Assembly (NCBI GenBank): GCA_964577535.1
Contig: CAZNZO010000003.1
Coordinates: forward strand, 69,620-133,619
DNA length: 64,000 nt
Source of the DNA: an uncultured Oscillospiraceae bacterium
Lineage (GTDB): Bacteria; Bacillota; Clostridia; Christensenellales; CAG-314
Direction: 5' to 3'
The notes under the pieces were generated by a model, which was given only the letters and a program-made list of their open reading frames with translations, was not told the origin of the DNA and did not search any database. The translations under genes were made by a program, and so were the position numbers. This document shows, in pieces, positions 1 through 64,000 of this stretch (position 1 is its first letter; the number at the start of each line of letters is the position of its first letter).

Positions 1-880
1 GTTTGAATATTTGGCAGTTTTCGAAATCTTGCGAAAACTTCAACAAGTTGTGGGCATCGGCACCACGCCAACTATAAATAGATTGGTCGTCGTCGCCCAC
101 AACGAAAATGTTGCCGTACTTTTCCCCCATCATTTTGAAAATTTGATATTGAACGCGGTTTGTATCTTGAAATTCGTCAATCAAAATGTACTTGTAGCGC
201 TCGCGATACTTTTCCAAGACGTCGGGGAAATTTGCAAACAATTTGTGAACGTAGTACAGCAGGTCGTCAAAATCCAAAGCGTTGTTTTCTTTCATTTTGG
301 CGCTATACTCGTCGATTATTTCCAACAAACGCTGCTGCGAAGCAACTTGTGCGGCATTGCGCATTTTATCAATTTCTTCGGCAATGCCTTCGTCCAAACT
401 TTCGGCAGAGGCCAAACCGCTATCCGGCAAATCGGGCAAATTGTTTTTCAGGTCGGAAATGCCTTCACAAAGATCATCCACCACTTTGGCATCGCCGTCA
501 TCCAACAAATCTTTGACTATCTTTTTTAGCAGGCTTTTCTTTTCGTCTTCCGTATAGATGGAAAAATTGCCTGTTCTATCCAGCTTGGATGCCTCGATGC
601 GCAAAACGCTTGCGCAAAAGGAGTGAATTGTTGAAACGTGCATGTACTGCGCGGCGCAGTCGAAATCGAACAAGCGGCGCTTCATTTCGTTTGCCGCTTT
701 GTTGGTGAAGGTTATGGCCAAAATTTCGTGCGGATTTACGCCACATTCGTTGACCAAATATAAAATTCTGTTGGTGAGCACGCGAGTTTTGCCACTGCCG
801 GCACCGGCCAAAACCAAAGTGGGTTTTAGCGGCGCGCAAACGGCCTGTAGTTGCTGCTCGTTTAGTTTTTGAAGGTTCAA
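1..880 (-). CDS. pcrA: UvrD/PcrA-family ATP-dependent DNA helicase, N-terminal part (gene runs off the left edge of the window)
   Basis: Not in the ORF track (TTG start, truncated by the window edge). My minus-strand translation from TTG 878-880 (GGAGAA SD 5 nt upstream) reads MNLQKLNEQQLQAVCAPLKPTLVLAGAGSGKTRVLTNRILYLV... Walker A GAGSGKT, motif II LIDEFQDTN and motif III VVGDDDQSIYSWRGA are present. Confidence 0.85.
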   Translation of the reverse strand, partial: MNLQKLNEQQLQAVCAPLKPTLVLAGAGSGKTRVLTNRILYLVNECGVNPHEILAITFTNKAANEMKRRLFDFDCAAQYMHVSTIHSFCASVLRIEASKLDRTGNFSIYTEDEKKSLLKKIVKDLLDDGDAKVVDDLCEGISDLKNNLPDLPDSGLASAESLDEGIAEEIDKMRNAAQVASQQRLLEIIDEYSAKMKENNALDFDDLLYYVHKLFANFPDVLEKYRERYKYILIDEFQDTNRVQYQIFKMMGEKYGNIFVVGDDDQSIYSWRGADAHNLLKFSQDFENCQIFK

Positions 881-894
881 AACTGTTCTCCGAA

Positions 895-1485
895 TTATCT
901 TTTCTTGTTGGGTTTGCGCCTTGTTAGCGTTGCCTTTTTCATATCCACCGAAACACCTTTGCCATGCTTAGCAATAAACTTGCGTTGAGCGGCAAAGCCA
1001 AAACGACCAAGCTGTTTGCCGTGTTGATAGTTGACTAGGTGCGCCAATTGATAGTTGATGCCACCATTTTCGTCCACGATGGAATCGTCGGCGTGCACCG
1101 CCAGGACGTCTGCCAAAAACATATCGTGCGAACCAAGGTTTAGCGTTTGAAAAACCTTGCATTCTAAGTTTATGGGGGATTGTTCGATGAGGGGCGCAGA
1201 TACAAAATCGGCGGCTACCTTTGTTAGCCCCATTTCGGCAAACTTATCTTCATCACGGCCGCTTCGAATGCCGCAGTAGTCGCAACAAGGCAGCAAATTT
1301 TCAGAAGTGAGATTGATAACAAACTCGCCAGTTTCGCAAAGCGTTTCGTAGGAAAACCTGTCGTGACGAATGGAAACGTAGACGCGCGGAGGATAGGAAC
1401 AAACAACACCCGTCCACGCAACTGTTATTATGTTGGATTTTTCCATATCCCCAACCGTGACCATAACGGCAGGCAAAGGGGGCAA
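895..1485 (-). CDS. flavin reductase-like FMN-binding protein; the N-terminus appears frameshifted (true start probably ATG 1517-1519)
   Basis: 196-aa ORF with family-typical LPAVMVTVG, NIITVAWTG and GIRSGRDEDKF. An SD-preceded ATG at 1517-1519 encodes MSKKLIKAGTLLAP in another frame, joined through the G5 run at 1478-1482. Confidence 0.8.
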   Translation of the reverse strand: MPPLPAVMVTVGDMEKSNIITVAWTGVVCSYPPRVYVSIRHDRFSYETLCETGEFVINLTSENLLPCCDYCGIRSGRDEDKFAEMGLTKVAADFVSAPLIEQSPINLECKVFQTLNLGSHDMFLADVLAVHADDSIVDENGGINYQLAHLVNYQHGKQLGRFGFAAQRKFIAKHGKGVSVDMKKATLTRRKPNKKR

Positions 1486-1561
1486 GCAGCGTGCCGGCTT
1501 TTATCAATTTTTTGCTCATTTATTCCTCCAAAAAATGTTTTTCGAATTTTTGCGTTTACAG

Positions 1562-7357: not shown

Positions 7358-7363
7358 GATAGT

Positions 7364-7392
7364 AGTTTAACATTTTTTTTGCCGTATTGCAA
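7364..7392 (-). promoter_or_regulatory. sigma-A-type promoter of rarA: TTGCAA-17-(TGt)TAAACT
   Basis: On the minus strand the -35 is at 7387-7392 and the -10 at 7364-7369, with a TG extension. The -10 ends 6 nt before the ATG and there is no SD. Confidence 0.45.
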
Positions 7393-7477
7393 GGCAAATA
7401 AGCCCACAAATAATAAAATATTATTTACTATATCTAGCGAAAAAAGACATTGCACCAAAACCAGGCCGAAAAATTGA

Positions 7478-7877
7478 TTGCGGCGGCATGAAGATGGCAA
7501 AAATGGGATGGAAATTAATGCAAAACAATGCGTGAAAAAATATGAGCGCAAAGAAGGAACGAAAATGCTGTTGCGTGCATTTGGAATCAACCACAACCGG
7601 CAAAGCGAAAAAAAACAAAAAAAAAGCCCGATGATTCGAGCTTTTGATGGGTGAATTTTGGGATGCGCTTTTACTAAAAACTGACAGGTTTAGGGAAACA
7701 GATAAACTTGGCGGCGGCATGAAGATGGCAAAAATGGGATGGAAATTAATGCAAAACAATGCGTGAAAAAATATGAGCGCAAAGAAGGAACGAAGCTGCT
7801 GTTGCGTGCATTGGGAATCAACCACAACCGGCAAAGCGAAAAAAACAAAAAAGCCCGATGATTCAAGCTTTTGATGG
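7478..7877. repeat. two near-identical ~170-bp direct repeats (7478-7650 and 7708-7877) separated by a 57-bp spacer, period 230 bp
   Basis: Hand alignment shows only about 4 substitutions plus A-run length changes between the copies. Confidence 0.9.
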
Positions 7878-8242
7878 ATAGGTTGGTGAATGTATTTTGG
7901 TTGATAAACTACAAAAACTATGCCACAACCCGTTGCAAACTTCTTGACTGCTTCGGTATGTTTGGGGCGATGAACCTAGAAGCAATGCACGAGACAAACA
8001 AAACGTCAGATTTGAAATACGCCTCGAATACTAGAAACTTGCTAGATGCACTCAATAGTTTGGGCATTTTAGGCAGTTTCTTTGAAACGTGCTGCTATTT
8101 GTGGTGCGAAATTAAATTTGCAAACATTGATTGCAAAGGAATTTTACCGATTTTCAAAAATTGATATAAACATTCCCGTTTTTTTGCGCTGATTGCAAAA
8201 TGGTTTTTCGGCAATTTTTGATGCGATTTACTTAGCAAAACT

Positions 8243-9664: not shown

Positions 9665-9732
9665 GGCTGACCTCCGAACGAACCGCATAAATTTTGCCGA
9701 TAATTGCGGCGAGTTGATAAAAAATCTTTATA

Positions 9733-9761
9733 ATTATAGCAAAATAAACGAGAAAATGCAA
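9733..9761 (-). promoter_or_regulatory. sigma-A-type promoter of the LysR gene: TTGCAT-17-(TGc)TATAAT
   Basis: Minus strand; the -10 is at 9733-9738 with a TG extension and the -35 at 9756-9761. Confidence 0.5.
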
Positions 9762-10060
9762 CGAATAGCACCAGGAAAAAGAAATGTTTGAACAAATATT
9801 TCGCTATTGTAAAGTGAAAAGCGCAAAATAGAGCGGCTTGAAAAAGCTTGGGTGAACGAGCGTGCACACCTGACGACTTGTGCGCTGAGGTTGAAAGTTT
9901 TTTGAAAATTGAAATTAAATGTTCGGCAAGAGAATAGTTGCCGATAAGAAAAACGGAAAAGCAGAGAAAAATGTAGTGAGAATGTGAAAAATTGTGAATT
10001 TATTGACGGAGTGCGAAAACGGGTTGAAAGAAAAGACAAAACCCATTGTGCGGCACTAAA

Positions 10061-10680
10061 AACACACCAATATTTGAAAAATCTGGCGTAGAAAAAATAC
10101 AAGGATGGGCGTGAATGGCAATGTGAAAACGAGAAATTTTGAGCGATAAAATGCAACAGAATAGAAAAACGAAATGTACAAAAAGTCAAGGAATTTTGTG
10201 TGGCAAAAGAAATGGGCAACTTTTAGTAGAAATGCAGTTAATTGCAATGCTAAAAATGGCCGAAGTAAAAAATCTATTGTGACGAAGATAGGTGAAATAA
10301 AAAATTTGAAGTGAGATTGTGTAAAAATTTGCGAGAATGAATTTGCACGGCCATGAAATACACACCATTATTTGAAAATACAGGCGTGGCAAAAATGGCA
10401 AGGATATTGGCACAAATGACAATGCGAAAAACGAGAAATTTTGAGAGATAAAATGCACAGAATGAACAAAAATAGAATGCGTGAAAAGGCAAAACAATTT
10501 GTATGGCAAAAAATAAGAGACTTCCAGTTGAAAAACACAAAAATTGCAATGCTAAAAACTGCAAAAAAGCAATTTTCAGTGAGAAAGCCTGCAAAATTAC
10601 AGGCTGAAAATATAAAAGAAATGGTCAACTTTTAGTGGAAATGCAGGTAATTGCTATGCAAAAAATGGGCGAAGTGAAGT
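10061..10680. repeat. degenerate tandem duplication (period ~300 bp) inside a ~1-kb A-rich non-coding region
   Basis: Shared blocks are cacaccaWtatttgaaaa (10064 / 10362), aacgagaaattttgagMgataaaatgca (10128 / 10430) and caacttttagtRgaaatgcagKtaattgc (10217 / 10626). Confidence 0.7.
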
Positions 10681-10729
10681 GTGAATTTTTAGCGGAGAAC
10701 GTATGAAAATTAACGCTACAAACGGCAGG

Positions 10730-11942: not shown

Positions 11943-12177
11943 CTACACTAAAGACGGGAAACACAAAAATCGGTTGTTTATCTCCAAAATAGACCTGAGC
12001 GCTAGGCTGGGAACACTGACGGACCCCACCTGGCGCACGCGTTTTTCGCCCTCTTTTTGCTTTTCCAAAAGTTTCTTTTTGCGTGTTATTATCTGGTAGC
12101 ACGTTGCAAAAATGTTTTTGCGCAGTGCCTTGACAGTTGTGCGAGCAATAATTTTATTGCCCCACCACGGCCGCTTT
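11943..12177 (-). pseudogene. degenerate tandem copy of the last ~64 codons of lepA
   Basis: The minus-strand frame reads [63 protein letters not shown]. The LepA C-terminus reads [64 protein letters not shown]. The copy has no start codon or SD and is out of frame with the lepA stop. Confidence 0.8.
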
Positions 12178-12190
12178 AGCTAACACAAAA

Positions 12191-13990
12191 CTAGTCGTCT
12201 ATCTTTAAAATAGACATGAACGCTTCGCTGGGAACGCTGACGGAGCCCACCTGACGCATACGTTTTTTACCTTCTTTTTGCTTTTCCAAAAGCTTCTTTT
12301 TGCGTGTTATATCGCCGCCGTAACACTTTGCCAAAACGTCTTTGCGTAGCGCCTTGACTGTTTCGCGAGCAATAACCTTGTTGCCCACCGCCGCTTGCAC
12401 AGGAATTTCGAACATTTGGCGAGGGATGGCTTCTTTTAGTTTTTCGGCAATTTGTCTGCCTCGAGCATAGGCACGTTCTTCGTTGACAATGATGGAAAGC
12501 GCGTCGCACATTTCGCCGTTAAGTAGCATATCCAAACGCACAAGTTTGCCCGGCACGTAGCCTTTAAGTTCGTAGTCCAAGCTGGCGTAGCCGCGCGTGC
12601 GAGATTTCAACGTGTCGAAAAAGTTGTAGATAATTTCGTTTAGGGGAATGTCGTAGGAAAGTTTTACGCGCCTGGTATCCAAATAGGTCATATCCAAAAA
12701 GGTTCCGCGTTTTTCCTGGCACAGGCCCATAACGTCGCCGACATATTCCTTCGGACAAAACACTTCTGCCGCAACAATAGGCTCTTCAATGTGGTCGATG
12801 GCCGTTACCGGAGGCAATTTGGTGGGGTTATCTATCAGCAGCATTTCCCCTTGAGTTGTGTAAACTTTGTAGCTTACGCTGGGCGCCGTCGTTACCAAAT
12901 CCAAATCGAATTCCCTCTCCAAACGCTCTTGAATTATTTCCATATGCAACAATCCCAAAAAGCCGCAACGGAAACCAAAACCCAAGGCAACGGAGGTATC
13001 CGGTTCGTAAACAAGAGATGCATCGTTAAGTTTCAACTTTTCCAAAGCATCCTTCAAATCGTTGTATTTGCTGCCGTCTGCCGGGTAAATTCCGCAGAAC
13101 ACCATGGGCTTCACATCTTTGTAGCCCTTCAAAGGCTCCTTGCAGGGGTTTTCGGCATCGGTTAGCGTATCCCCCACCTTGGTGTCGCAAACCGTCTTGA
13201 TGCTTGCGCAAACGTAGCCAACGTCGCCAGCTTTAAGTTCGGCAACCGGTTGTGTGGAAGGCGCAAAAACGCCAACTTCCGTCACGTCGAAAACTTTGCC
13301 CTTTGTTTCGAACATTTTTATTTTGGTGCCCACTTTAACAGAGCCATCCACAATGCGAACAAAAATGATAACACCTTTGTAGTTATCGTATTGGCAATCG
13401 AAAATAAGCGCTTTTAGCGGCTGGTCTTCACTGCCCGACGGGGGCGGAACCAAATCGACCACGGCATCCAAAACGTCCTGAATGTTCAATCCCTCTTTGG
13501 CCGAAACCAACGGCGCCGCAGATGCATCCAAACCGATGGCATCTTCAATTTCCCTTTTGCAACCTTCCACGTCGGCAGAAGGCAAATCTATTTTGTTGAT
13601 GACGGGAATTATTTCCAAATCGTTTTCCAACGCAAGATAGCAGTTTGCCAGCGTTTGCGCTTCCACGCCTTGCGAAGCATCCACCACCAACAAAGCTCCT
13701 TCACAGGCGGCAAGAGAACGCGAAACTTCGTAGTTGAAGTCCACGTGGCCGGGGGTATCTATCAAGTTTAGTTCGTAGTCCACGCCGCCCTTTTGGTAGG
13801 TCATTTTTACCGGCGTAAGCTTTATTGTTATGCCGCGCTCACGCTCGATATCCATGCTATCCAGCATTTGCGCTTCCAAATCGCGTTTGGCAACTTGGCC
13901 GGTGAATTCCATAAGACGATCGGCCAAGGTGCTTTTGCCGTGGTCGATGTGGGCTATTATGCAAAAATTTCTCTTGTTTTTTTGTGTCAT
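12191..13990 (-). CDS. lepA: translation elongation factor 4 (LepA)
   Basis: 599-aa ORF with G1 [14 protein letters not shown] and NKID motifs and a LepA-specific C-terminal domain. Confidence 0.97.
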
Positions 13991-25603: not shown

Positions 25604-26325
25604 AACTACCCCCCTCGCGCAGTGCGTGCGCGAAACAAATCTTTTTTTATTATATCATTCATGAATGAAAGTTACAATATTTTTTGCAAATTTTTTTGCA
25701 AGTATGGTGAATTTTTGCATACCGTTGCGCTGTTTTCGTGCAAAATTTGCCTGTTTGGGTGGCGAAATGCAATTCGGAAAACATTTTGAATGCGAGAGTG
25801 CGTGGTTTTGAAAAATTTGATTTCGTGAATGGAAAAAAAGTACAGCAAAAATGTGCAACATGGCTGCGTTGCGATTGAGCGGCAACAACTACCATACCTG
25901 ATAGCAAAGACACAAAACATATTGTTGAATTTTGATTTAAATCAATGTCGCATAGTCACACAAAATTGTTTGGAACAATGAAATGATAAAACAGAAAAAC
26001 AACAAGCAAAAGCAAACCCACAGTTTAATTTAAAATTGCAGCAAGGCAGGCACGGCAAACAACCTTGCAAAGCCAAGCGTGATACAAGAAAATTATTTTA
26101 GATGCAACAGTGTTGTGCGAGAACATAGATACAAACAAAAACAAGAACGTTGCACAACAAAACCAGTTGAAAATTGCGTGGCAAATAGCAATGTGAAAAC
26201 ATCAAGACAGGCAGCCATTTGCACTATTATAACCAAACTATCGCAAAAGGATATCGAAATTGTGCGAGGCGTGTTGGAAACGCAAAAATTCGTCAAAAAA
26301 AGTGATAAAAAACGCAACGGAAGTA

Positions 26326-26353
26326 TTGACATTTGGCGTTTATGGTGTATAAT
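26326..26353 (+). promoter_or_regulatory. groESL sigma-A promoter: TTGACA-16-TATAAT
   Basis: The -35 is at 26326-26331 and the -10 at 26348-26353, immediately upstream of CIRCE. Confidence 0.7.
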
Positions 26354-26357
26354 ATAA

Positions 26358-26384
26358 TTAGCAGTCGAAGCACGAGAGTGCTAA
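26358..26384 (+). promoter_or_regulatory. CIRCE operator (HrcA binding site)
   Basis: TTAGCAGTC-N9-GAGTGCTAA compared with the consensus TTAGCACTC-N9-GAGTGCTAA. It lies 35 nt upstream of groES. Confidence 0.9.
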
Positions 26385-26418
26385 AAAATTAGTTAAACAA
26401 TATTTTGGAGGCATATAA

Positions 26419-28419: not shown

Positions 28420-28501
28420 ATGGAGACAAGGCATTGCACATTTATTTTGCATTTGAGACAACCTTGCGTAGAAGAATTGGCCTTATTTAGTGAAAATATG
28501 C

Positions 28502-28530
28502 TTGAAATCGTTCGTTGATCGTAGTATAAT
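28502..28530 (+). promoter_or_regulatory. sigma-A promoter of the lipoprotein gene: TTGAAA-17-TATAAT
   Basis: The -35 is at 28502-28507 and the -10 at 28525-28530. A leader of about 150 nt follows, with two short hairpins. Confidence 0.6.
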
Positions 28531-28690
28531 GGAAATATAATAAATATATTGCACATGCAAAAGCAAAATTTTGTGCGGCAAAACGACAAGCATGCCGTGC
28601 AAACAAAAGTTTTTGCATCTCTGCAAAAATGCAAACCTCGGGTTTGCTAGGCGCCGAAAACATGCGCCACAATTTGGGAGGTAACTTCGA

Positions 28691-28870
28691 ATGAAAAAGA
28701 AAGTTTTGGTAGGCATTCTTGTTTTGGCACTGCTTTCCTGCGTGCTGTTTGCCTTTTCGGCATGCAAGGGCCAAGTTCCCGTTTACCAAGGGATGACCAT
28801 TTCCGACGCATCAACGCACAGAAACGCCCATGCTGCAAACGGCAACATGGTGCGCAGTCGTCAAGATTAG
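28691..28870 (+). pseudogene. 5' fragment of the large lipoprotein gene (signal peptide with lipobox), ending at an in-frame TAG
   Basis: GGGAGG SD. The fragment encodes MKKKVLVGILVLALLSCVLFAFSAC|KGQ... and is in the same frame as ORF 29000-31987. The only stop between them is TAG 28868-28870. Confidence 0.7.
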
Positions 28871-28999
28871 GAAACTGCACCTCTGCAACACCGTGAAGAT
28901 CCTTTTCATGGTGACCACACCGGCCGCGACGACGACCTAGATAAGGACAATCCCTTCCCCGATGAAGACCAAACAATCGAAGAAGAAATAAAGTCGTCG

Positions 29000-32017: not shown

Positions 32018-32058
32018 AATGCGACCCCAAAAGTGAAAAACTTTTGAGGTCGCATTTT
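32018..32058 (+). terminator. intrinsic terminator after the surface-protein gene
   Basis: 17-bp stem (one mismatch) between 32018-32034 and 32040-32056, loop GAAAA, and a short T-run. Confidence 0.75.
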
Positions 32059-32302
32059 GGTGTGTGTAGTTTCTTTATCAAAAAAAAATTGGTTTGTAAA
32101 CACGCTTGCCACAAACCACTTCAAAAATGAAAAACGGTTTGAGTTGGTGCGTAAAATAAAAGAAGCGATGCTGAAGCAGGCAAAAGAAAAGCCGCCAGGG
32201 GTTGTTGGCGGCTAAAAACGAGATACAATTATTACAAAACACGGTGGCCTAGGCGGACAGGCAATGTTTGTTCAATTGACGACGTGCTGAAATTGTCGAT
32301 TT

Positions 32303-32481
32303 TTGACGTTGTTATAAGCAAGCAAGGCAACGTTAGTTGCAATTTGCTACGTGCTTTTGAAGTAGTTTCTCATCCCGACACAACAATAACTGCTAGTTCA
32401 ACTAGCGATGCGCTGATGGGATGGTTGACGTTGCAACAAACGGCAACGTTGGGTGCAACTAGCTGTGTGCTTTTGACGTAG
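32303..32481. repeat. two ~60-nt direct repeats (32303-32365, 32425-32481), period ~122 bp, each with an AACGTT-centred palindrome
   Basis: Both copies fit ttgacgttg...ggcaacgttRgKtgcaa...gtgcttttgaMgtag. A gctagttcaa motif also recurs at 32391 and 32508 (the latter overlapping the transporter stop codon). Confidence 0.6.
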
Positions 32482-32508
32482 CTATGGCAACAGCAATAAA
32501 CGCAATGG

Positions 32509-37354: not shown

Positions 37355-37387
37355 TAGTTTGTTCCTTCCTGCAAAATTATTGAAAAT

Positions 37388-37416
37388 ATTGTACTCTTTT
37401 GCCGCCCACTTGTCAA
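37388..37416 (-). promoter_or_regulatory. lgt sigma-A promoter: TTGACA-17-TACAAT
   Basis: Minus strand; the -10 is at 37388-37393 and the -35 at 37411-37416. Confidence 0.6.
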
Positions 37417-37429
37417 TTATTATATTAGA

Positions 37430-37451
37430 TTAACAAATATATATTTGTTAA
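37430..37451. promoter_or_regulatory. perfect 22-bp palindrome TTAACAAATATATATTTGTTAA (candidate operator)
   Basis: Exact inverted repeat, located 14 bp upstream of the lgt -35 in the divergent lgt/acyltransferase region. Confidence 0.5.
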
Positions 37452-37731
37452 AGCCAAAACGCCTTGGCGCTTTTGAGTGCGACCGGCAGAGAAATTCACA
37501 CTAAACGCACAAAATTGTTTTGAAGGGGGCGGTTGCATAGAGCAAACACAAAAACGTGTAGCAAATAATAGCTGAGTTGCGTGTTTGCCGCTTTCACGGT
37601 TGTGCTTTGGCTGCGCATGCGCAAGTGGAAAATTCACACAAAAGGCGCAAAGAATTTGCCCCTAAATGCGCAAAAACTATACTACGTAGCAAATTTTTTG
37701 TGCAAAAAAACATATTATTTGCAAAATAGTA

Positions 37732-37760
37732 TTGTTGAAAAACACACAATGTGATACAAT
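37732..37760 (+). promoter_or_regulatory. candidate promoter of the acyltransferase operon: TTGTTG-17-(TGa)TACAAT
   Basis: The -35 is at 37732-37737 and the extended -10 at 37752-37760, about 30 nt upstream of ATG 37791. Confidence 0.45.
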
Positions 37761-37790
37761 GATTAGAAGAAACAAAAAGAGAGCAACTCT

Positions 37791-41300: not shown

Positions 41301-41318
41301 GTTCTCTTCTCCTCTTGT

Positions 41319-41354
41319 ATAAAATAAAAAGTGCGCCAACCGAAGTTAACGCAC
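41319..41354 (-). terminator. strong intrinsic terminator 18 nt upstream of the SHOCT gene's ATG
   Basis: The minus-strand RNA is GUGCGUUAAC-UUCG-GUUGGCGCAC: a 10-bp stem with 2 G.U pairs and a UUCG tetraloop. It is followed by UUUUUAUUUUAU. Confidence 0.8.
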
Positions 41355-41378
41355 CGAAAAACGCAAACCCCGATTGTC

Positions 41379-41535
41379 GCCAAACAAATCGAAGATAGAA
41401 GAGGGACGAATCCTTTGTGTCCTAACCCGCGGAATTTGCGCTTTTACCAAATTTCATCAAAGATTAGGTTGCACGAAAAAGATAGACTTATCCCTAAAAG
41501 AAACGTCCACCTCAAAAATATTCGATTTGTTTGGC
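41379..41535. other. 157-nt element closed by a perfect 15-bp inverted repeat (candidate structured RNA or MITE-like element)
   Basis: gccaaacaaatcgaa (41379-41393) pairs with ttcgatttgtttggc (41521-41535). The helix is extended by gagggacg / cgtc-ca-cctc. Confidence 0.6.
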
Positions 41536-41662
41536 ATATTCACTATATCACATACAAAGATTTTTCAAGTGCTTTACAAATAAAAACTCTACACCAACAA
41601 AACTTTGCGAATGAACACACGATGCAAAAGGCGTTGATACTCCACGCCCCTCGGGCGGCACG

Positions 41663-42004
41663 CTAGAAGCCAAGGCTTACTAGCAAAGCGTTATCTATTT
41701 TTTGCATAACTTCGGCGGGCAATTCGCCAATTTTATCCTTCAAGCGGCTTTTATCGATGGTGCGAATTTGCTCCAACAACACGACGGAATCCTTTGGCAA
41801 GGGCGTTTCCGCACGAGAAAGCCCAACGTGCGTGGGCAATTTGGCCTTATAGAGTCGCGAAGTTGTTGCCGCCGCAATCACGGTTGGGCTAAACTTGTTG
41901 CCGACGTCGTTTTGCAACACCACAATGGGGCGTATTCCACCTTGCTCGCTACCCACAACAGGGTTCAAATCTGCGTAATAAACTTCTCCTCGTTTAACTG
42001 TCAT
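41663..42004 (-). CDS. mazF: MazF/EndoA-type endoribonuclease toxin
   Basis: [43 protein letters not shown]...[13 protein letters not shown] closely matches B. subtilis EndoA as I recall it. The start is set at ATG 42002-42004 behind GAGGGG. Confidence 0.9.
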
Positions 42005-42698
42005 TTTAGTCCCCTCAATTTTGGGCAAACACTCTTTTGCACGAACAGCAGACATTTTCCGCGCCGCTTGTTTGCACGTGACAGCGGACATTAGCGCACT
42101 TGAAAATGCGTTTTGCCAGGCATTTTGACGTTAGCTGCGGCTTATTACACAATGCATAAAATTCTGTTTGATGCGCCGAAGGCACAAACACACAACGCTT
42201 TGTAGTTTTGCACAAGAAGTTAAAAGATAGCGGCAGTTCTTCAAAGATTTTGCAGAATGGCAAAATAGTTACTGCGAACAGCACACAATGCAATAAGTTT
42301 TGTTTTGCTTGCAGGCATGGAAAACTTTTTTGCTCTGCGTGTTTCAAGTGCCAAAACCACAGTTGTGCAAAGTTTTTGCTGCATGGCAAAAAATTTACTT
42401 TGGCTAGTATACACTATGTAACAATTGCAAAAAGTGTTAGCACGGTTATTGTTGCCAACAACACGTTTGCATATACTTAAACTAGAAAACCCGATCGCAC
42501 CACCTCCCAAACGTTTTTTGTTGAACACACCCCACACCGAAAACCACAAGCAAAACCGCAAAACAAACACGAAAAACAAACAATGTTGCAAAAATATAGA
42601 ATAAGCAAAAAGCGCAACTAATTAACAACGACAAACACAAACTAAAAAAGTTGCACGACTTTGCAAAATCAAAAGCCCAACAAACCGCAAAAAACGCA

Positions 42699-42736
42699 AC
42701 AAAAAAAGACGCACTGCACAGTAGCAATGCGTCTTT
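42699..42736 (-). terminator. valS intrinsic terminator
   Basis: Stem AAGACGCA/TGCGTCTT (42706-42713 / 42728-42735), followed by UUUUUUU on the minus strand. Confidence 0.65.
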
Positions 42737-42750
42737 TGACTGCAAAAAAA

Positions 42751-45366: not shown

Positions 45367-45403
45367 AATTTTCTCCCGTGGCAGCAAAAACTGCCAAATA
45401 AAA

Positions 45404-45625
45404 TAAAAAAACGACCTTGCTCCATCAAAGGGCAAACGGTCGTTGCGGTACCACCTTCGTTCCGATTTTGGCATGCCAAAAATCGCTCGTTAAAGTTTTT
45501 AACGGAACAACCCGAGCAAAACTACTTTCGCAAAAATGCGCCGTTTCGTTTTGCCAACAAACAAACTACATTTTGCACCTTTCGACACGGAATTTTCACC
45601 ACAGTCCGCTCTCTTTAGACGAAAA
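45404..45625 (-). promoter_or_regulatory. T-box riboswitch leader of valS
   Basis: The minus strand has AGAGAG...GGTGAAAA stem-I elements (from about 45614 downward) and an AGTAG box. The T-box sequence is AACGAAGGTGGTACCGCAAC (core 45445-45455). It overlaps the terminator stem ACGACC/GGTCGT (45411-45416 / 45439-45444) followed by a U7 run. Confidence 0.85.
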
Positions 45626-45662
45626 ACTTGCAAAACCTTTTGTTTTTGGTTTTTACTATTTA

Positions 45663-45692
45663 ATTTTAGCACATTGCTAGGCAAATTGGCAA
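45663..45692 (-). promoter_or_regulatory. valS promoter: TTGCCA-18-(TGc)TAAAAT
   Basis: Minus strand; the -10 is at 45663-45668 with a TG extension and the -35 at 45687-45692. This gives a leader of about 290 nt. Confidence 0.5.
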
Positions 45693-46053
45693 GCGTTTTT
45701 TGCCATGCCGCAAGACACAAAATGCGCTTTGTGGCAAGTTGCAGATTTTCGGCTGAGTTGCAGCGGCCCAAAATGCACAAATGGGCATAGTTTTTGATGA
45801 ATAACTGCGCAGATGCAGCAGGTAGACAATGGCTTTTAGGAGAGAGGAAACACGTTTGTTGCCAAAAAAACTTTGTTACAAATAGGGAAATGATTTTTGA
45901 TGAGTGCACTAGCTGTTAGCTTCCCACATTGTTAGGTGGGCAATGGCTTTTTGGGGCGGGTGTGAACTAGCAGTGCCGGCGAATATCACGGCCAAAACAG
46001 CACGTTAACGTGGTTTTTGCAAGCCTCAATGCAAAAATGCCCCAAAACCACCA

Positions 46054-48238: not shown

Positions 48239-48418
48239 AAATTGGCAAAAAACGCATATTATGTTTGGCATAATAGTATACAAATTGCGATTTTCTGGCA
48301 AAGCCCGCTGGTTTTGGCGTGAAATTTGCTTAGGATAAGAACAACAGCACCGCCACCACTTGTGGAACAGGAACCATTCGGGAAACCAAAATAAATAACG
48401 TTTTCGGCGGCAAAAGGC

Positions 48419-48797
48419 GACAATTAAAAAACAAAAATTTACTGCAAAAGGCAACTGTTGAGAATAGAAAACTTGTTACAAAACAAACCGAAAAGCAAAC
48501 CGAAAAAGTGTGTAGATGAGTTTTGAATAGTGGTTGAAAAAGATTGAGCAATTAAACCCAAAACACTTGGAAGCATCAAATCTTTTCAACAAAAGCAGAG
48601 AGGTTGCCAAGGCATTTTTCCTTATGTTTGGAAAATGTACTACACCATTTTGGGCGCTAAAAAACAATTAATGAATACAAAACTCAATAAAAGCAATAAT
48701 GTTTTCGATAGTCGAATTTCACAATTAAGAAACCAAAACTTGTTGCGAAAGGCAACGATTAAAATCACAAAACTTGTTTCAAAATGAACCGAAAAAC
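48419..48797. repeat. diverged ~77-nt direct repeats (48419-48495, 48720-48797), period ~301 bp, inside the ATPase-permease gap
   Basis: The copies align as caattaaRaaac...gcRaaaggcaac...aaaacttgtt.caaaa..aaccgaaaa, about three quarters identical by eye. Confidence 0.6.
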
Positions 48798-48861
48798 AAT
48801 GGAAAGAAACAAGCAAAGCAGGCGAACAAAAAAGAAAAAATTTACATGCACGGAGGAAAAA

Positions 48862-49677
48862 ATGCAACACGCAAACACCACTTTCACCAAAGAACATTTG
48901 CAATTTTTGGCACGCAAAAAGCAACGAAAAATTTTGGTGCACGTTACGCAAGTGGGAGTGCTTGTTGCCGCTTTGTGCCTGTGGGAAGTTGCGGCGCGCC
49001 TGCAATGGATTGATAGCTTTATCACAAGCAGCCCGTCGCGAATTTTTGCAACTTTGTGCCAGCTGATTTCCGACGGCACGTTGATTCGCCACGCATGGAT
49101 TTCCACTTTGGAAACACTTGCCGGTTTTGCAATTGGAACGGTTGTTGGGTACGCCGTGGCAGTTGCTCTGTGGTGGAACAATTTTTTGAAAGACGTTTTT
49201 GAACCCTACGTTGTTGTTCTTAACAGTTTGCCCAAAATTGCGCTTGGGCCGCTGATAATAATTTGGGTGGGTACGGGCAAGGCGGCAATAATCACCATGG
49301 CAGTTCTGATTTCCGTTGTTATCACCACCATCACCATTTTGAACGGTTTTTTGAAAACAGATGCCGACAAAGTTTTGCTGCTGCTAAGCATGAAGGCAAA
49401 CAAACTGCAAATTTTTAGCAAGCTTGTGGCACCATCCAACTTACCAACACTTATGGCAACGTTAAAAATAAACGTGGGAATGGCGTGGATTGGCTCCATA
49501 ATGGGCGAATACCTTGTTTCCAAAGAGGGGTTGGGGTATTTGCTGGTTTATGGAAGCCAGGTTTTTAGGTTGGATCTTGTTATGACCTGCACTATTGTTC
49601 TTTGCGCGCTGGCCGGTGTGATGTATGCCGTTGTTTCCGTGCTGGAAAAATTGGCAACAAAAAACTTTGTGCAATGA
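48862..49677 (+). CDS. ABC importer permease (TauC/SsuC-like)
   Basis: The start is set at ATG 48862 behind a GGAGGA SD (MQHANTTFTKEHLQF...). The protein has six hydrophobic segments. Confidence 0.9.
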   Translation: MQHANTTFTKEHLQFLARKKQRKILVHVTQVGVLVAALCLWEVAARLQWIDSFITSSPSRIFATLCQLISDGTLIRHAWISTLETLAGFAIGTVVGYAVAVALWWNNFLKDVFEPYVVVLNSLPKIALGPLIIIWVGTGKAAIITMAVLISVVITTITILNGFLKTDADKVLLLLSMKANKLQIFSKLVAPSNLPTLMATLKINVGMAWIGSIMGEYLVSKEGLGYLLVYGSQVFRLDLVMTCTIVLCALAGVMYAVVSVLEKLATKNFVQ

Positions 49678-50608
49678 CTTTTGTAGCGGCGGCAAACACG
49701 CAAAAACCAAACAGGGAAACAAAAGCGTAGCCATATTTTAGGGCGAAATCGAACCCCAAAAAGGAAAGAGCGCAGGTTGAGCCAACCAGCAAAAAAGCCA
49801 ACAGATTTTTGTTGCCGACAAACACGCCTTCGGCCGCTTGCAAAACTGGCAGCAAATTGGCGCAAATACTTGCAACAACGCTGAAAAACACAGCAGAGCA
49901 CGCCAGCGCCACAAGAGGCACGCTGTTGTTGCGACCAAACAGCGGCAGGCTGAGGGAAAAATCGCTGCACCAAACGGCCAAAGCGGCAAGAATTGCAAAA
50001 ACTGCGGCGCAAATTGCCGATGGCAAACAACAACCGCCTTTTTGCTTCTGGCCAAGCGAAACCAGCACGCCCAAAATTGTGGCAACGGAAAAGGCGGCGT
50101 AGCCTACTGGATAAAACTTGCTGACGGTTGCAGTACCTGCTGCCTTGGGCAGTGTTGCAATGGCAACCAAATATGCAACAATAAGCACAACGGAAAGGGC
50201 GTTTATTGCCTTCAAAAAGGAAAAATTCGTGCACAAAACAACCAAACAACAAATGGCAACCACAGTGCTGCAAACAAATTTTGGCAAGCCAAGCGAATTA
50301 CGCAAGCAATCATCAACGCCGGCGAGCAACGTTGCGGCGCACACCAAACTGCACAAACAAAACAGCCAAGTGGCAACAGGCATACCTTTGCCAAAACACA
50401 CGGAAAAAAATTGCTGCACTGTTTTGCACTGCCGGGCTGCGCAGGCCTTTCGCACCACGAAACAAAAAGTGAAAAAGCAAATGGCAAAAATAAAGACGTT
50501 GGTGAAATTGCCAAAGAAAATTGATGCTTCCTTTCCGCTTAGAAAACCAACGCCTATGCAACTGCCCACAACTGTGGCACAATCAAAAAATACGTCGCGA
50601 ATTTTCAT
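49592..50608 (-). CDS. ykvI: YkvI-family membrane protein
   Basis: MKIRDVFFDCATVVGSCIGVGFLSGKE resembles the YkvI N-terminus (..IGTVVGAGFASGQE). The longer ORF-track start (50722) adds codons rich in TTA and ATA. The 3' end overlaps the convergent permease gene by 86 nt. Confidence 0.7.
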   Translation of the reverse strand: MKIRDVFFDCATVVGSCIGVGFLSGKEASIFFGNFTNVFIFAICFFTFCFVVRKACAARQCKTVQQFFSVCFGKGMPVATWLFCLCSLVCAATLLAGVDDCLRNSLGLPKFVCSTVVAICCLVVLCTNFSFLKAINALSVVLIVAYLVAIATLPKAAGTATVSKFYPVGYAAFSVATILGVLVSLGQKQKGGCCLPSAICAAVFAILAALAVWCSDFSLSLPLFGRNNSVPLVALACSAVFFSVVASICANLLPVLQAAEGVFVGNKNLLAFLLVGSTCALSFLGFDFALKYGYAFVSLFGFCVFAAATKVIAQSFLLPIFPARKQRHTSHRPARKEQ

Positions 50609-50708
50609 ACAGTATGGTATGCAATTCGCGGCGTATAAAGAAGTTGCGGCTGTTGCAAAATGAACGACTCGCCCAAAAACCGCAACTAAAAACAAAAGAC
50701 ATATTAAG

Positions 50709-51100
50709 TTGTTTTGCATCAAAATTGATGTGATTTAGGTGCGAAATGAGCACTTACATAAACATCACATTGATGCTGTTTTTTATAAAAAAAGCAAATT
50801 TATAGCGCAACGCCGGATGCGTTTTAGTGCAAAATTGATGCAAATTTAAGCGCCATATTGATGCTGTTTGCAACAAATTGACACATATTTTAACGCAGTG
50901 TTGATGTGTGTGAGTGGCAAACAGATTATAAAGCCACGCCGACGTGTTTAGTCTCGACACCGCATTTAAGTGTCTGGCAGAAAAGCACAATTTTAGCGCC
51001 ACATTGATACGTTTTCTTGCAAAATTGGCACGATGCAAACAAAAATTTGCACTATTTTAGCGGCCAAATTGTCGCAATTTTGGGGCTACGCATGCGATTT
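50709..51100. repeat. degenerate tandem array with a ~21-22-bp period, unit roughly TTTTAGCGC(C)A(A/C)AATTGATG
   Basis: The best units are tgttttgcatcaaaattgatg (50710), gttttagtgcaaaattgatg (50821), caaatttaagcgccatattgatg (50841) and tattttaacgcagtgttgatg (50886). Further units are attttagcgccacattgatac (50989), gttttcttgcaaaattggcac (51010) and ttttagcggccaaattgtcgc (51054). Confidence 0.7.
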
Positions 51101-51142
51101 TTTGCAACAAAACAAAATTTTGCACTTCAAAGGGCAATGCGG

Positions 51143-54106: not shown

Positions 54107-54756
54107 TGTTACATCCTTCGAGGCGCATACCTCTAATTATTATATCACAAAGTATTATATCAAACTTTTGCAAATATTTCAATTATATTAAGCGTCATTT
54201 TTGCGAAGATTTGGCGGATGCGCACGTCAAAAAAAGCAAAAGCAACACAAATGCTATATGTATGCTAGGAAGTTTGCGCCGTGCGACGGTTTTTGAAAGG
54301 ACACAGGCAAAAGCACGTGAAAACGCTGAGTAAGCGAGCGCACCTGACAGGTGATAAAAGCAACGCTTATTGCAAGGACGAAAGCTACGATTGCATTTTA
54401 GCTGCGGTATTCTATTTTGTTATGAGCAACAACTTTGCAAGCAAAAAAACAACATGACGGACAACAAACTTGCCAAAAGTGAAAATGAATAAAACGAATG
54501 AATTAGACTGAAAAAGTGGCAACGTGGCGAAATGCTTCCAGAAAAATGCAACGTGGTTTTTGTTCGCAATGCAACAACTAACCCGAGAGTTGGCAAAAAA
54601 TTGCAGTACTCGGCCACAAATGTGGAAATTTGCTGCGACAGTGCAAACCGCACCACTTTGCAAAGAGATTTTTGCTGCGTAATTGGTACTAGCCGCAAGT
54701 AGCAATTTTGTTATTTTTGCACTCATTTTGCCATAACCTAGAAAACGGAGAACAAA

Positions 54757-59457: not shown

Positions 59458-60511
59458 TTTTCTTGTTCCAATTTTTTGCACACGACAATGCCGTGTTTTG
59501 TGTGTTAACTCCCCGACCCCCTTGCACCACCGATGAGAAAAATTGAGAGATATATTTTGCAATTGTGCCGCCATGTTTTTTGACATCCAAAGCCACAACA
59601 GCATCAAGGCGTTTTTTTGAACACAAGCCACAACGAGATGATTGTTGCTTAATTTCAATTATCTGATAAGACTTTTAGAAAGTTTTTCAATCAAGATATT
59701 TTTTTGACTACTTTGGCTTTCTATTGCACTGCAAACAGAAAAATTGAATTGATACAAAAGACAATAATTTTGGCCATCCGTTTTCGCATCCCGCCTGCTT
59801 TTTGCGTCTTCTTAGAATACGATCGACCGCATGGCTACTCGCATTGTTGAGGGCTATCTGTTTTTGTTTAGAGAGTTATTTTCTGTTGAGGTTTCTGTTA
59901 TTGCTCGCTATGTTGAATTTAAGCCGTTACAGCCCATTGAAATTTTGTGTAGCAATGTGCCCGTCAAAACTCAACAATAAGCGATAGGTTTAAAACCCTG
60001 CACCACCGATGGGAAATGTTGAAGGGATACAAAAGCCAATGATTTGGGCCGTCAGATTTCGCATCCCGCCACTTTTAGCGTGTTTTGGCAAATTCGTTTG
60101 GCATTGTGGTTTTGCGAAAATTTTGGTTTGGTGGCGGCCAAATCGATTCCGTCTTTACCTGTTTTTTTCGATGCTTTTTTTGCGTTTTTCTATTTCAGGT
60201 TTTATTTTAGCGTTGCAAGTTTTTCGTTCTTTATTTTTATTCTTGAGTTTTTTGCTTTGTATATTTTTTTCTATTGCTGGTTTTGTTTGTGGTTGCAAAC
60301 TTTTTATTTCCTTGCAAGCCTTGGTTTTTCCAAATATTTATCCTAACAAGTTTTTTGTTTTGCGAATTTTGTATTTGCAAATTTTGCGTTAATTTTCGTT
60401 AAGTAACTTGCCGCAGCAGCGGGGTTTAGGTAGCTTGCACGCGAACACACAACTTTGCACAAAAGCCGCCAAAAGGCAAACAATGCCGCCAGACTGCACG
60501 TTTGCAAACAA

Positions 60512-60545
60512 ATTGCGGCAACAACAAGCAAAGTTGCCGCCGCAA
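60512..60545 (-). terminator. candidate rnj terminator hairpin
   Basis: Stem GCGGCAAC/GTTGCCGC (60514-60521 / 60532-60539). The minus-strand tail AAUUUGUUUG is only moderately U-rich. Confidence 0.4.
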
Positions 60546-60565
60546 AGCATAAAAACAATTGCAAA

Positions 60566-62476: not shown

Positions 62477-62882
62477 ACATACCTCTGTTAACTGCAAAAG
62501 AAACCTTTTGCCAAACGGCGCAACGCGCGCCAGACGGGTGGCATTGCCACCAAACGCAAGAACGGTTCTTGCAAAGTTTGCACTCACTTGCAAACGAAAT
62601 TTCTTAGTTAGTTAGTTGCAAAAGCCTTTTTAATTTGCGAAAAACTGCAAATTGAAACTTTTATAGCAAAACAAATTGCGCCGCACATAAACACGACAAA
62701 ATTTGATTTGGGTAAGGCAATTAGTGTCCCAAAAACTTGCACAACATCGCCAAACGAAATGCGCAGCGCACTTCGACAAATCTACTCGCAAAAATTTTGC
62801 CCGTTTGTTTTGGCAACCGTGCAACGCAAAGTTGGCCCCAGGGCCACAAAAAGTGTTGCCAAAATTGAGCAAGAGCAAAACG

Positions 62883-63866
62883 CTATTTTTGTTTTGTCGC
62901 AGCCTTTGCTTTTGCCTTCATTTTTTTGTTGAAACGTTCGGTGCCTTCCACATCCACCTTTTTGCAGAAAAACGGACGATTGGTTGCCGTGAAATATTCC
63001 ACAAAGTTTACGCATTTAAGCAGGAAGAACAGCAGCAAACTGGGGATTGTGCTTGTTGCAATCGTGACAACGTTGCTTTCGCCAAACACTATGGACAAAG
63101 AAAAGCAAGCAGCCATTGTGCACACAATGACAAGGGTTTTCCAAAACACGCCCCAAAAACGATAGGGAATTAGCGATGCCGACCGTATTAGGCTTTTGCC
63201 AATGCCAATTTCTTCCGTTACGGCAACGGGAAGCCAAAAGGAAAAATAGGTTAGGCGTGCGGAATAGGCCAATAGCAGTACCACCATTGCCGGAACAATT
63301 GCCCACCACCCCATGAACACCGAAAGGGCCAAACAAATGCCAACGGAAGAAAGAATGACGAACAAATCTAGCGGCAAGGCCAGCAACGTTTGCAAAAACA
63401 CAAATTTTAAACTAGATGCAAATTTCTTGACAAAATACCACGAAAATGGGCGTGTGGCATTGGAAGTCATGAATTCTTGCAGTTGGTAGCCGGCGGAAAG
63501 GTCGGAAATGGAAACCAACATGCGGTACACCAAGAAAATGCAAACAAATGCCACGTAGGAAACTTCCACCCTGTTCCAAATGTTGGGGATGGATTCGATT
63601 GCATCGCCCGTTTCTTCAATTAGTTGAGCTAGCGTATCCAAAAATGCACGAATATTAAATTCGCCGTTTACAATGTTTTTGATGCTTTCGGCAAGAAAAT
63701 CGCTCCAATCCACCATTTCGAAAATTTGCAAGAAATCTTCAACAAGTCCGCCAAAAATCAAAAAGCAAAGCGCAGCAACCAATGCCAAAATAAGCACCTG
63801 ACAAATAAGTGCTTTTAGCATCACTTTCCAATTGTATCCAGCCAATATAAACGCTTTTTTTAACAT
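62883..63866 (-). CDS. polytopic membrane protein (unknown function)
   Basis: The ORF-track ORF is 62883-63974. I prefer ATG 63864-63866 (MLKKAFILAGYNWK) because the upstream 36 codons are rich in CTA and TTA, which real genes here avoid. Confidence 0.65.
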   Translation of the reverse strand: MLKKAFILAGYNWKVMLKALICQVLILALVAALCFLIFGGLVEDFLQIFEMVDWSDFLAESIKNIVNGEFNIRAFLDTLAQLIEETGDAIESIPNIWNRVEVSYVAFVCIFLVYRMLVSISDLSAGYQLQEFMTSNATRPFSWYFVKKFASSLKFVFLQTLLALPLDLFVILSSVGICLALSVFMGWWAIVPAMVVLLLAYSARLTYFSFWLPVAVTEEIGIGKSLIRSASLIPYRFWGVFWKTLVIVCTMAACFSLSIVFGESNVVTIATSTIPSLLLFFLLKCVNFVEYFTATNRPFFCKKVDVEGTERFNKKMKAKAKAATKQK

Positions 63867-64000
63867 AGTTAGCCCTACCAAATTTTGTAGCAAGCAAGGT
63901 TTTGCCTTGCCCTCAATTAACTTTTTGCCTGCGAAAAGGCATTTTGCAAACGGCACTAGGCATTGCGTGGCCATTACTTTGCCAAAGTGCGATCGTCATT

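Follow-up and report, generated by a model that had tools for sequence, protein, structure and literature searches.

Why should a fifth of a run of bacterial housekeeping genes code for nothing, and many of the gaps in it be so long? The question is raised by a 64-kb stretch of DNA (64,000 nucleotides [nt] of contig CAZNZO010000003.1; hereafter the window) from an uncultured relative of Candidatus Fimimonas among the gut Clostridia. A preliminary description of the window had drawn attention to its long A-rich intergenic regions (the gaps), to direct repeats within them, and to the abundance there of the hexamer TTTTGC and its complement GCAAAA; it proposed either a lineage-specific duplication or slippage process or a function such as long untranslated regions (UTRs), small RNAs (sRNAs), or binding and curvature tracts. 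Our analysis favors duplication: with a probability of about 0.7, the gaps are ordinary neutral spacers between transcription units that have been inflated by tandem duplication and have then decayed.

Extent and Repeat Content of the Gaps

A curated gene map that combines open reading frames (ORFs), Pfam hits, database gene calls on identical contigs, and synteny contains 48 genes and leaves 13.0 kb, or 20.4% of the window, non-coding. The earlier estimate of ~12 kb, or a fifth, is borne out, and the nine long gaps listed with it exist as described. The 47 junctions between genes have a median length of 168 nt; 19 are at least 300 nt long and 11 at least 500 nt, and on identical DNA database gene callers leave the long gaps empty too.

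Repeats were sought by self-BLAST of the whole window (E < 1e-3) and, in each gap of at least 300 nt, by comparing the best self-match with those of 60 dinucleotide shuffles. The self-BLAST returns eight non-self matches, each between direct copies separated by 99-409 nt; six of the eight are in gaps, and the remaining two fall inside a gene for a 995-amino-acid (aa) GLUG-motif repeat protein. No inverted match and no match between gaps occurs at this threshold within the 64 kb, and a search of the gaps against the window at E < 1e-4 gives two further matches between unlinked sites, both short (42 nt at 81%, 33 nt at 88%). In 10 of the 19 gaps of at least 300 nt, six of the nine listed gaps among them, none of the 60 shuffles yields a direct self-match as strong as that of the actual sequence. 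All eight repeat pairs named in the preliminary description are present within a few nucleotides of where it had placed them, although its wording that nearly every gap contains such repeats was an overstatement, since about half do. The pair at 45820/45934 is weak; the direct repeats of 45657-46053 are marginal against shuffles (0.02), and neither 25604-26418 nor 54107-54756 has a direct repeat above shuffles. The best inverted self-matches in the long gaps are mostly terminator-like hairpins.

These repeats have the form of tandem duplications: the copies are direct and adjacent, and the unit boundaries are arbitrary, one unit cutting lepA and another holding a terminator hairpin. Periods vary from 99 to 476 nt, and no unit is related to that of another gap. 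Identities are graded (95, 89, 83, 81, 80, 78, and 75%), which fits duplications of different ages, and copies in two gaps now differ by insertions or deletions (indels) of 100-200 nt. The private repeats of each gap, at their varied stages of decay, would be present because each gap underwent its own duplications and then decayed.

The young duplication in gap 7358-8242 carries a terminator-like hairpin in each 231-nt copy (- strand; 7645-7622 and 7872-7849). Short-read contigs from three samples (L005 and L096-L098) all end at position 7816, within the second copy; they come from the same species, match the window at 99.97% identity or more, and, because they break there, reveal no copy-number polymorphism of the 231-nt unit. 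Published metagenome-assembled genomes (MAGs) of the clade may under-represent such gaps, the young repeat breaking assemblies. In one relative, L095, the same junction has its own unrelated repeat, with a 191-nt period. More generally, relatives with long gaps (L010, L011, L013, and L095) have their own unrelated local direct repeats and relatives with short gaps do not, so the duplication process is not unique to this lineage, contrary to what had been suggested. Two unrelated 55-nt identical repeats in L010, each with copies 155 nt apart (8836-8890/8991-9045 and 12289-12343/12444-12498), are of a k-mer-like size that suggests assembly artefacts within genuinely repetitive gaps.

The gaps might instead be remnants of small mobile elements, whether derived from miniature inverted-repeat transposable elements (MITEs) or insertion sequences (ISs) or left as scars by phages or plasmids. 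The junction beside the RNase J gene holds ~800 nt more than that of the sister species, an indel of ~200 nt, bordered by an 11-nt direct repeat (TCAATTTTTCT), distinguishes the copies of its ~476-nt duplication, and the distant relative L013 has dispersed repeats common to several gaps. A mobile origin is nevertheless highly improbable: there are no dispersed and no inverted-repeat pairs in the 64 kb, the gap frames match no transposase and, apart from the lepA relic described below, no other family in Pfam or NCBIfam, and no match was found for 59458-60565 in a plasmid collection or for 9665-10729 in a phage collection. The 11-nt repeat fits equally well a microhomology-mediated deletion in the other copy of the duplication.

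The window repeats share with repetitive extragenic palindromes (REPs), bacterial interspersed mosaic elements (BIMEs), MITEs, and clustered regularly interspaced short palindromic repeats (CRISPRs) their confinement to intergenic regions, but they are private to each gap and are neither dispersed nor palindromic nor built of short regular units with spacers. The marks of REP, BIME, MITE, and IS families (unlinked copies; terminal inverted repeats, palindromes, or transposase) are absent within the 64 kb, as are the near-identical, regularly spaced repeats of ~23-50 nt that define a CRISPR; the units are 40-220 nt long and occur in two copies of 75-95% identity. The earlier statement that the gaps show no IS, MITE, or CRISPR architecture therefore stands. 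The repeats that L013 shares among different intergenic regions (3283-3338/4438-4485/11514-11569 and 10976-11220/15710-15811) could be a small dispersed element family of that genome.

A Relic of lepA and the Reading Frames in the Gaps

One duplication has copied the end of a gene. A second copy of the 3' end of lepA lies directly downstream of the functional end and abuts its parent exactly (at 12181 and 12182), with 80% identity to it (11960-12176 against 12182-12396). Its frame matches the Pfam family LepA_C (3.6e-18) and TIGR01393 lepA (9e-20), and in a tblastn search with the window proteins, lepA residues 536-599 align to 11973-12161 at 73% identity. Taking L093 and L095 as outgroups places 44 lineage-specific changes in the relic and 10 in the parent lepA end, a 4.4-fold difference. 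The sister species has no such relic, and its gap is 207 nt long against 357 nt in the window. From this dead tandem copy it follows that gaps grow by tandem duplication of whatever lies there and that the redundant copy decays. The suggestion of duplication or slippage acting on intergenic DNA is thus supported from three sides, namely the direct and adjacent arrangement of the significant repeats, the copied lepA end, and the finding (below) that most gaps longer than those of the sister species bear repeats.

The relic is the sole family match among 141 gap reading frames of at least 45 codons searched against Pfam and NCBIfam. The other 140 have none, in keeping with the earlier view that the frames in the gaps are non-coding. 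It is hardly credible that the gaps code after all, either for small Phe/Leu/Lys-rich membrane proteins or through an alternative genetic code. Frames of 100-184 codons do stand open on the T-rich strand of most gaps, and gene callers at times place ORFs of 52-153 aa in them; however, the open frames lie on the A-poor strand, as stop-codon composition predicts, no reassignment of TGA, TAG, or TAA opens a frame that spans a gap, and the genes use all three stops. Non-triplet indels are frequent. The calls also vary on near-identical DNA: in gap 9665-10729, callers give ORFs of 60, 52, or 153 aa on DNA that is 99.97-100% identical (L097 and L098 each differ from the window by one base), so these calls are spurious. 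An 85-aa ORF called upstream of groES in a second strain of the species (L007) was likewise rejected, its substitutions being distributed 7:8:9 over the codon positions and its end being the groES promoter.

Pseudogene debris, that is, genes eroded here and still kept by relatives, is a very unlikely source for the gaps as a class. The lepA relic is a dead gene fragment, L009 and L091 have an intact gene of 592-597 aa at the hsp33 junction, and strains vary in whether they have the 3.8-kb block with the 995-aa gene; each would suit such an origin. Against it, a single frame of the 141 has a family match, and a tblastn search of the gene-masked window with ORFs of at least 80 aa from six related loci and with the window proteins finds the relic and a T-box region only, the T-box match being nucleotide conservation that appears in several frames. 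Relatives do carry an intact gene at the hsp33 gap, as an origin from debris would have it, but the 592/597-aa gene has left no trace in the window; because the hsp33 junction of the sister species is 98 nt long and lacks that gene, the extra DNA in the window is later growth and not debris. At the largest gap, between the RNase J and methyltransferase genes, relatives carry no gene, and their junction measures 35-311 nt (311 in the sister species, 114 in L091, about 35-100 in L009-L011 and L013, and 35-190 over the more distant relatives). Outside the relic, then, the gaps contain no recognizable pseudogene.

Length and Rate of Change of the Gaps

The sister species (L089 and L093, both from one sample) has the same gene order, and the nucleotide identity of its genes to those of the window is 81-89%. 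Junctions inside operons have nearly the same lengths in both (window/sister, 3/3, 12/10, 42/42, 21/21, 14/14, and 34/33 nt). Eight junctions between operons are 1.7-4.3 times longer in the window (1108/311, 1065/538, 885/395, 423/98, 423/225, 406/214, 357/207, and 346/138 nt), and five others are about equal; duplications are detectable in five of the eight. Summed from gene calls over 25 shared junctions, intergenic DNA amounts to ~6.7 kb in the window and ~4.0 kb in the sister species, a ratio of about 1.7. Such differences in length between close relatives, expected of tandem duplication, extend to the strain level, where a 104-nt indel separates the window from L007 in gap 41313-41662.

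Only the 40-180 nt next to genes can be aligned with the sister species; the cores cannot. In gap 54107-54756 the 178 nt and 76 nt that adjoin the genes align, in gap 59458-60565 124 nt and 41 nt at the edges, and the core of gap 9665-10729 is unalignable with that of L093. Junction lengths also vary widely among relatives: the junction of gap 48239-48861 is about 30 nt long in L009, and the divergent junction upstream of asd measures 711 nt in L089, 459 in L009, 1580 in L010, 473 in L011, and 230 in L013.

Rates of substitution were measured against L007, the same-species comparator (96.4-97.2% identical to the window). Divergence is 1.1% at codon position 1, 0.7% at codon position 2, and 6.3% at four-fold degenerate sites; it is 4.6% at gap edges (within 100 nt of a gene) and 6.3% +/- 1.3 in gap cores (more than 100 nt from a gene; 83 of 1,312 sites). 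Indels are 16 times denser in cores than in coding sequences (CDSs), at 6.9 and 0.42 per kb. Within this one strain pair, the cores thus appear to evolve as neutral DNA, that is, in the absence of purifying selection. The groES gap illustrates the pattern, with one substitution in the promoter-proximal ~115 nt past position 26304 (the count for bin 7), 59 in the other 700 nt, and eight small indels.

Signals at the Gap Edges

On these comparisons, each gap would have a core free of selective constraint, bordered by a thin functional rim with a terminator just past the upstream gene and a promoter, operator, or leader within ~50-300 nt of the downstream gene. Where sought, elements of this kind are recognizable at gap edges, among them a T-box leader, intrinsic terminators, and a sigma-A promoter accompanied by a CIRCE-like operator (Table 1), and the verdict that the gaps fit no standard feature class was accordingly too strong.

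The T-box accounts for the gene-proximal third (~230 nt) of gap 45367-46053; no other gap sequence is conserved in L009, a more distant relative. It resembles known T-box leaders (RF00230) in being full-length, in lying upstream of an aminoacyl-tRNA synthetase gene, and in its conservation in a relative, although its score is below the Rfam gathering score of 93 and it covers ~230 nt of a single gap. At gathering thresholds the window has no Rfam match; at E <= 10 the T-box is the only credible one, the rest (snoRNA and miRNA models) being at chance level. A search of the window for tRNA and tmRNA genes found none.

Table 1. Coordinates of gaps, duplications, and candidate regulatory elements in the window
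Feature	Position	Strand	Description
Gap, 179-aa gene/MgsA-like AAA gene	7358-8242		885 nt; young tandem duplication
Tandem duplication	7480-7650/7711-7877		231-nt period, 171 nt, 94.7% identity
Gap, hemW/LysR-type regulator gene	9665-10729		1065 nt; older ~300-nt tandem duplication
Older duplication	10058-10256/10356-10558		75% identity
Tail of ~300-nt unit	10205-10269/10614-10678		89% identity; shifted by ~110-nt indel
lepA 3'-end relic copy	11960-12181	-	Last ~205 nt of lepA and stop region; parent copy about 12182-12403
Divergent gap upstream of groES	25604-26418		815 nt; no repeats; last ~95 nt functional
Predicted groES promoter, TTGACA-17-TATAAT	26326-26354		Consensus match in sequence
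CIRCE-like operator, TTAGCAGTC-N9-GAGTGCTAA	26357-26383		Sequence match, within 95 nt of groES
Convergent gap	31988-32508		521 nt; terminator hairpin at 32013-32061
Weak direct repeat	32326-32365/32442-32481		83% identity, 116-nt spacing
Gap downstream of valS	42005-42750		746 nt; A+C-rich low-complexity tract 42480-42720
Decayed repeats	42234-42273/42360-42399; 42147/42283		~130-nt period; in gap 42005-42750
valS intrinsic terminator hairpin	about 42708-42733	-	Right after valS
T-box leader	45425-45656	-	Upstream of valS; Rfam RF00230, 84.2 bits, E 8.7e-17, full-length model match
A-rich gap	48239-48861		623 nt; duplication 48420-48498/48721-48799, 78% identity, 301-nt period
Gap, hsp33/next gene	50609-51142		420-534 nt; short decayed repeats, 88-146-nt spacing
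Divergent gap upstream of asd and 385-aa gene	54107-54756		650 nt; no repeats
Gap, RNase J/O-methyltransferase gene	59458-60565		1108 nt
~476-nt duplication	59520-59546/59996-60022; 59738-59810/60013-60084		81-85% identity
A-rich tract	about 60100-60420	-	In gap 59458-60565
RNase J terminator	60545-60513	-	Directly after RNase J

The Oligonucleotide Signature

GCAAAA (214 copies) and TTTTGC (206) are the two commonest hexamers of the window, and the nine copies tallied in the preliminary description for 42061-42480 are exactly nine. The richness that it reported is real, but it is not specific to the gaps: GCAAAA is also the top hexamer within CDSs, in all three frames and on both strands. The pair occurs at 5.8 per kb in CDSs and 9.4 per kb in gaps, being denser in the latter because they are more A+T-rich.

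The 420 copies exceed the expectation from base composition about 11- to 14-fold, that from a first-order Markov model or dinucleotide shuffles 1.5- to 1.65-fold (268 +/- 15 expected by shuffling, an excess of 1.57), and that from a fourth-order Markov model hardly at all (1.05 in CDSs, 1.00 in gaps). As measured against composition-matched shuffles, then, the hexamer enrichment exists but is window-wide, while the repeats stand out in 10 of 19 gaps. The dinucleotide odds ratios of the window are high for AA/TT (1.56), GC (1.57), and CA/TG (1.23) and low for TA (0.52), AG/CT (0.67), and GA/TC (0.68), and they are nearly equal in CDSs and gaps (AA, 1.56 and 1.54; TA, 0.51 and 0.50; AG, 0.67 and 0.69). 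GCAAAA is the most probable hexamer because it chains the favored steps of this signature; the excess over dinucleotide shuffles means that tri- and tetranucleotide biases contribute too. The signature and the top hexamers recur in nine related loci, including those of the compact, short-gap sister species, and are missing from outgroup loci.

The hexamers therefore reflect a clade-wide oligonucleotide signature that shapes genes and gaps alike and are not a gap motif; beyond lower-order composition, they show no enrichment localized to a compartment or strand. The signature is of the Karlin type in that relative abundances do not change between coding and non-coding DNA or from one related genome to another and in that they set the commonest k-mers, and it differs from the usual case in that its values are extreme. 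By the usual dinucleotide yardsticks, AA/TT at 1.56, GC at 1.57, TA at 0.52, and AG/CT at 0.67 all class as extreme. Codon usage follows the DNA signature (GAA 854 and GAG 109; CAA 560 and CAG 128; GGC 751 and GGG 80; TTG 738 and CTC 47), and AG, GA, CT, and TC steps are avoided at the DNA level in every frame.

Strand Asymmetry and Points against Neutral Inflation

Several observations weigh against neutral inflation as a full account of the gaps. Nine of the 19 long gaps have no detectable duplication, and their origin is argued by analogy. The test of neutrality compares one strain pair at ~1,300 core sites in some of the gaps, and the largest repeat-bearing gaps (those beginning at 7358, 9665, and 59458) fall outside the diverged same-species comparison. 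Two gaps, 37355-37790 (2.5% divergence from L007) and 41313-41662 (0.8%), are slow and may hold unrecognized functional elements. Two junctions are long in three species (885, 395, and 974 nt and 1065, 538, and 1530 nt in the window, the sister species, and L095), which hints that length itself may be tolerated or favored there. Finally, the + strand of gap cores has an excess of purines (AT skew +0.134, GC skew +0.091) that simple neutral decay does not predict and whose AT component is mirrored neither at four-fold sites nor in the substitution spectrum of the lepA relic.

Both slow gaps have some structure. The divergent gap 37355-37790 contains several inverted repeats (for example, 37548-37570/37713-37735), with a chance-level aceE-II hit as the only Rfam result, and may hold a regulatory element. 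Gap 41313-41662, downstream of a PemK/MazF-like toxin gene, has an 18-nt inverted repeat with arms 121 nt apart (41379-41396/41518-41535) and could be an unrecognized RNA; despite its conservation, the segment 41547-41650 is absent from L007. The toxin gene itself (41663-42004, - strand) has no recognizable antitoxin ORF upstream, the longest frame there (42005-42413, - strand) being Cys/Phe/Leu-rich junk without a family match.

Could the long gaps as a whole be functional non-coding DNA, such as UTRs, sRNA genes, Rho-termination or insulator zones (the - strand, which bears most of the genes, being the pyrimidine-rich one), or curved nucleoid-binding tracts, with the repeats as multiplied modules? 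In addition to the slow gaps, the persistently long junctions, and the purine excess that holds whatever the flanking genes, the terminator-like hairpin in each 231-nt copy and A/T tracts with a weak periodicity of ~10-11 nt (ratio 1.1-1.15) would accord with this. We consider it unlikely. The cores diverge at the four-fold rate with an indel density 16 times that of genes, they cannot be aligned with the sister species, in which these junctions may be two to four times shorter, and no Rfam family besides the T-box appears even at E <= 10. Three gaps flanked by + strand genes on both sides, (+,+), are purine-rich on their own sense strand, which is the opposite of a Rho-target design, and the varied periods and unrelated units of the repeats do not suggest modules. 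The phasing of the A/T tracts was rejected as evidence of curvature, since the signal is weak and coding DNA has a comparable weak peak at a lag of 12-14. For the bulk of the gap DNA, the functions proposed in the preliminary description are thus unsupported.

The purine asymmetry deserves separate treatment. In 16 of 19 cores, among them those of divergent and convergent gaps, where gene orientation cancels, A is at least as frequent as T on the + strand; the earlier remark that the A-rich strand is usually the + strand is confirmed, with A > T in eight of the nine listed gaps and in ~20 of 28 gaps of at least 150 nt. Four-fold sites on the + strand agree with the cores in GC skew (+0.117) and not in AT skew (+0.014). 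A mutational enrichment of A on the + strand was rejected, since the lepA relic has gained A 8 times and T 12 times and lost A 9 times and T 11 times, without bias. In syntenic relatives the AT sign is the same in 21 of 26 gaps (by database gene calls), but this does not separate causes because gene order is shared. The sign of the skew is constant within the collinear 64-kb region.

Firmicutes that carry PolC have a purine asymmetry between replication strands (PMC4070872; PMC3174206), and their AT skew has been attributed to selection on coding sites (PMC3174206). The window resembles them in having an excess of A and G on one strand over 64 kb, independent of local gene orientation, and in that the sign of its cores agrees with the GC skew at four-fold sites. 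It differs in that the AT component is absent at four-fold sites and in relic substitutions and in that its purine-rich strand is the gene-poor one, the opposite of the usual link: 15 of the 48 genes lie on the + strand and two thirds on the - strand. As the leading strand of a Firmicute of this type, the + strand would therefore be unusual, and selection on coding sites cannot explain the AT skew of cores that are non-coding. In Bacillus subtilis, Rho is reported to target pyrimidine-rich RNA (PMC13323073); an explanation of the asymmetry by Rho targeting or Rho avoidance was rejected as inconsistent with the three (+,+) gaps.

A further reading, which we hold to be distinctly unlikely, is that the clade maintains long, fast-evolving, purine-asymmetric spacers in which composition and length matter and sequence does not, and which are renewed by tandem duplication. 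Such spacers could possibly serve as zones of Rho-dependent termination or insulation for uncoupled ("runaway") transcription, or as nucleoid-structuring tracts. This would explain why junctions stay long in three species although their sequence is replaced and why 16 of 19 cores are purine-rich on the same strand.

Source of the Window and Neighboring Features

The window has a G+C content of 45% and contains Firmicute housekeeping genes, including lepA, hemW, groES/groEL, valS, asd-dapA-dapB, hsp33, and the gene for RNase J. Its RNase J is 100% identical to proteins on short-read assemblies from a few sequencing runs and 72-86% identical to proteins of uncultured gut Clostridia MAGs, some of them named Candidatus Fimimonas. 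A collection based on GTDB contains no representative genome of the same species; the window is fully syntenic with the nearest genomes in it (L009, L010, and L011, Ca. Fimimonas gallinarum). NCBI taxonomy misplaces Candidatus Fimimonas in the Myxococcaceae, and proteins of these gut Clostridia MAGs are consequently labeled "Corallococcus sp." in public databases.

Several features lie beside the gaps. The 995-aa GLUG-motif protein gene (29000-31987, + strand) has internal DNA repeats at 29848/30124 (39 nt, 100%) and 31571/31670. It lies in a 3.8-kb block (28423-32186) that in L007 is exchanged for 360 nt and thus forms a strain-variable surface-protein locus. The convergent genes 48862-49677 (+ strand) and 49592-50608 (- strand) overlap at their 3' ends by 86 nt (49592-49677); in L009 the pair is ~190 nt apart. 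Just past the end of the window at 64000, adjoining the gene 62883-63974, is a prophage-like block (L001 1-8476), conserved in L089 and L091, that includes a P22-type portal, DUF7934, and, in L089, a terminase.

Origin and Significance of the Gaps

If neutral inflation is correct, the cores of this species would have been enlarged by occasional local tandem duplications of 100-500 nt, arising through replication slippage or through unequal exchange between short repeats, which are plentiful in DNA of such low-complexity composition. Duplication would copy whatever is there, gene ends included, and the copies would erode by point mutation and microhomology-flanked indels until unrecognizable. 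Microhomology-mediated deletions would take DNA out again, with gains having outpaced losses in this species; weak deletion pressure may be what lets the probably functionless cores persist.

Tandem segmental duplication followed by neutral decay is familiar in direct adjacent copies with arbitrary boundaries and graded identities and in the faster decay of the non-functional copy, and the copies in the window have since diverged by microhomology-flanked indels. Bacterial tandem duplications are usually unstable and soon lost. The window differs in that several generations of them persist in non-coding DNA and produce a measurable inflation relative to the sister species. Low coding density is itself known, in Mycobacterium leprae and Sodalis glossinidius through pseudogenes and in Trichodesmium erythraeum through long intergenic regions. 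At ~80% coding, a value obtained from 64 kb, and with many gaps of 0.5-1.1 kb, the window resembles these genomes, but it has one relic only, no load of mobile elements, and unconserved cores. No account of long intergenic regions in this clade came up in searches of the literature.

The gaps are thus a real but largely ordinary feature, a fresh instance of known genome dynamics in an uncultured gut clade. For work on these genomes, ORF calls within the gaps are unreliable, short-read assemblies break at young duplications, and GCAAAA/TTTTGC is not to be taken for a motif. That unconstrained DNA has its purine excess consistently on one strand poses a small question about strand asymmetry in Firmicutes. 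If the gaps have grown as we propose, the lineage would be a natural case of a bacterial genome that gains non-coding DNA by duplication faster than deletion removes it; it would bear on the long-held idea that bacterial genomes stay compact through deletion bias and would provide a system for measuring insertion and deletion spectra on neutral DNA.

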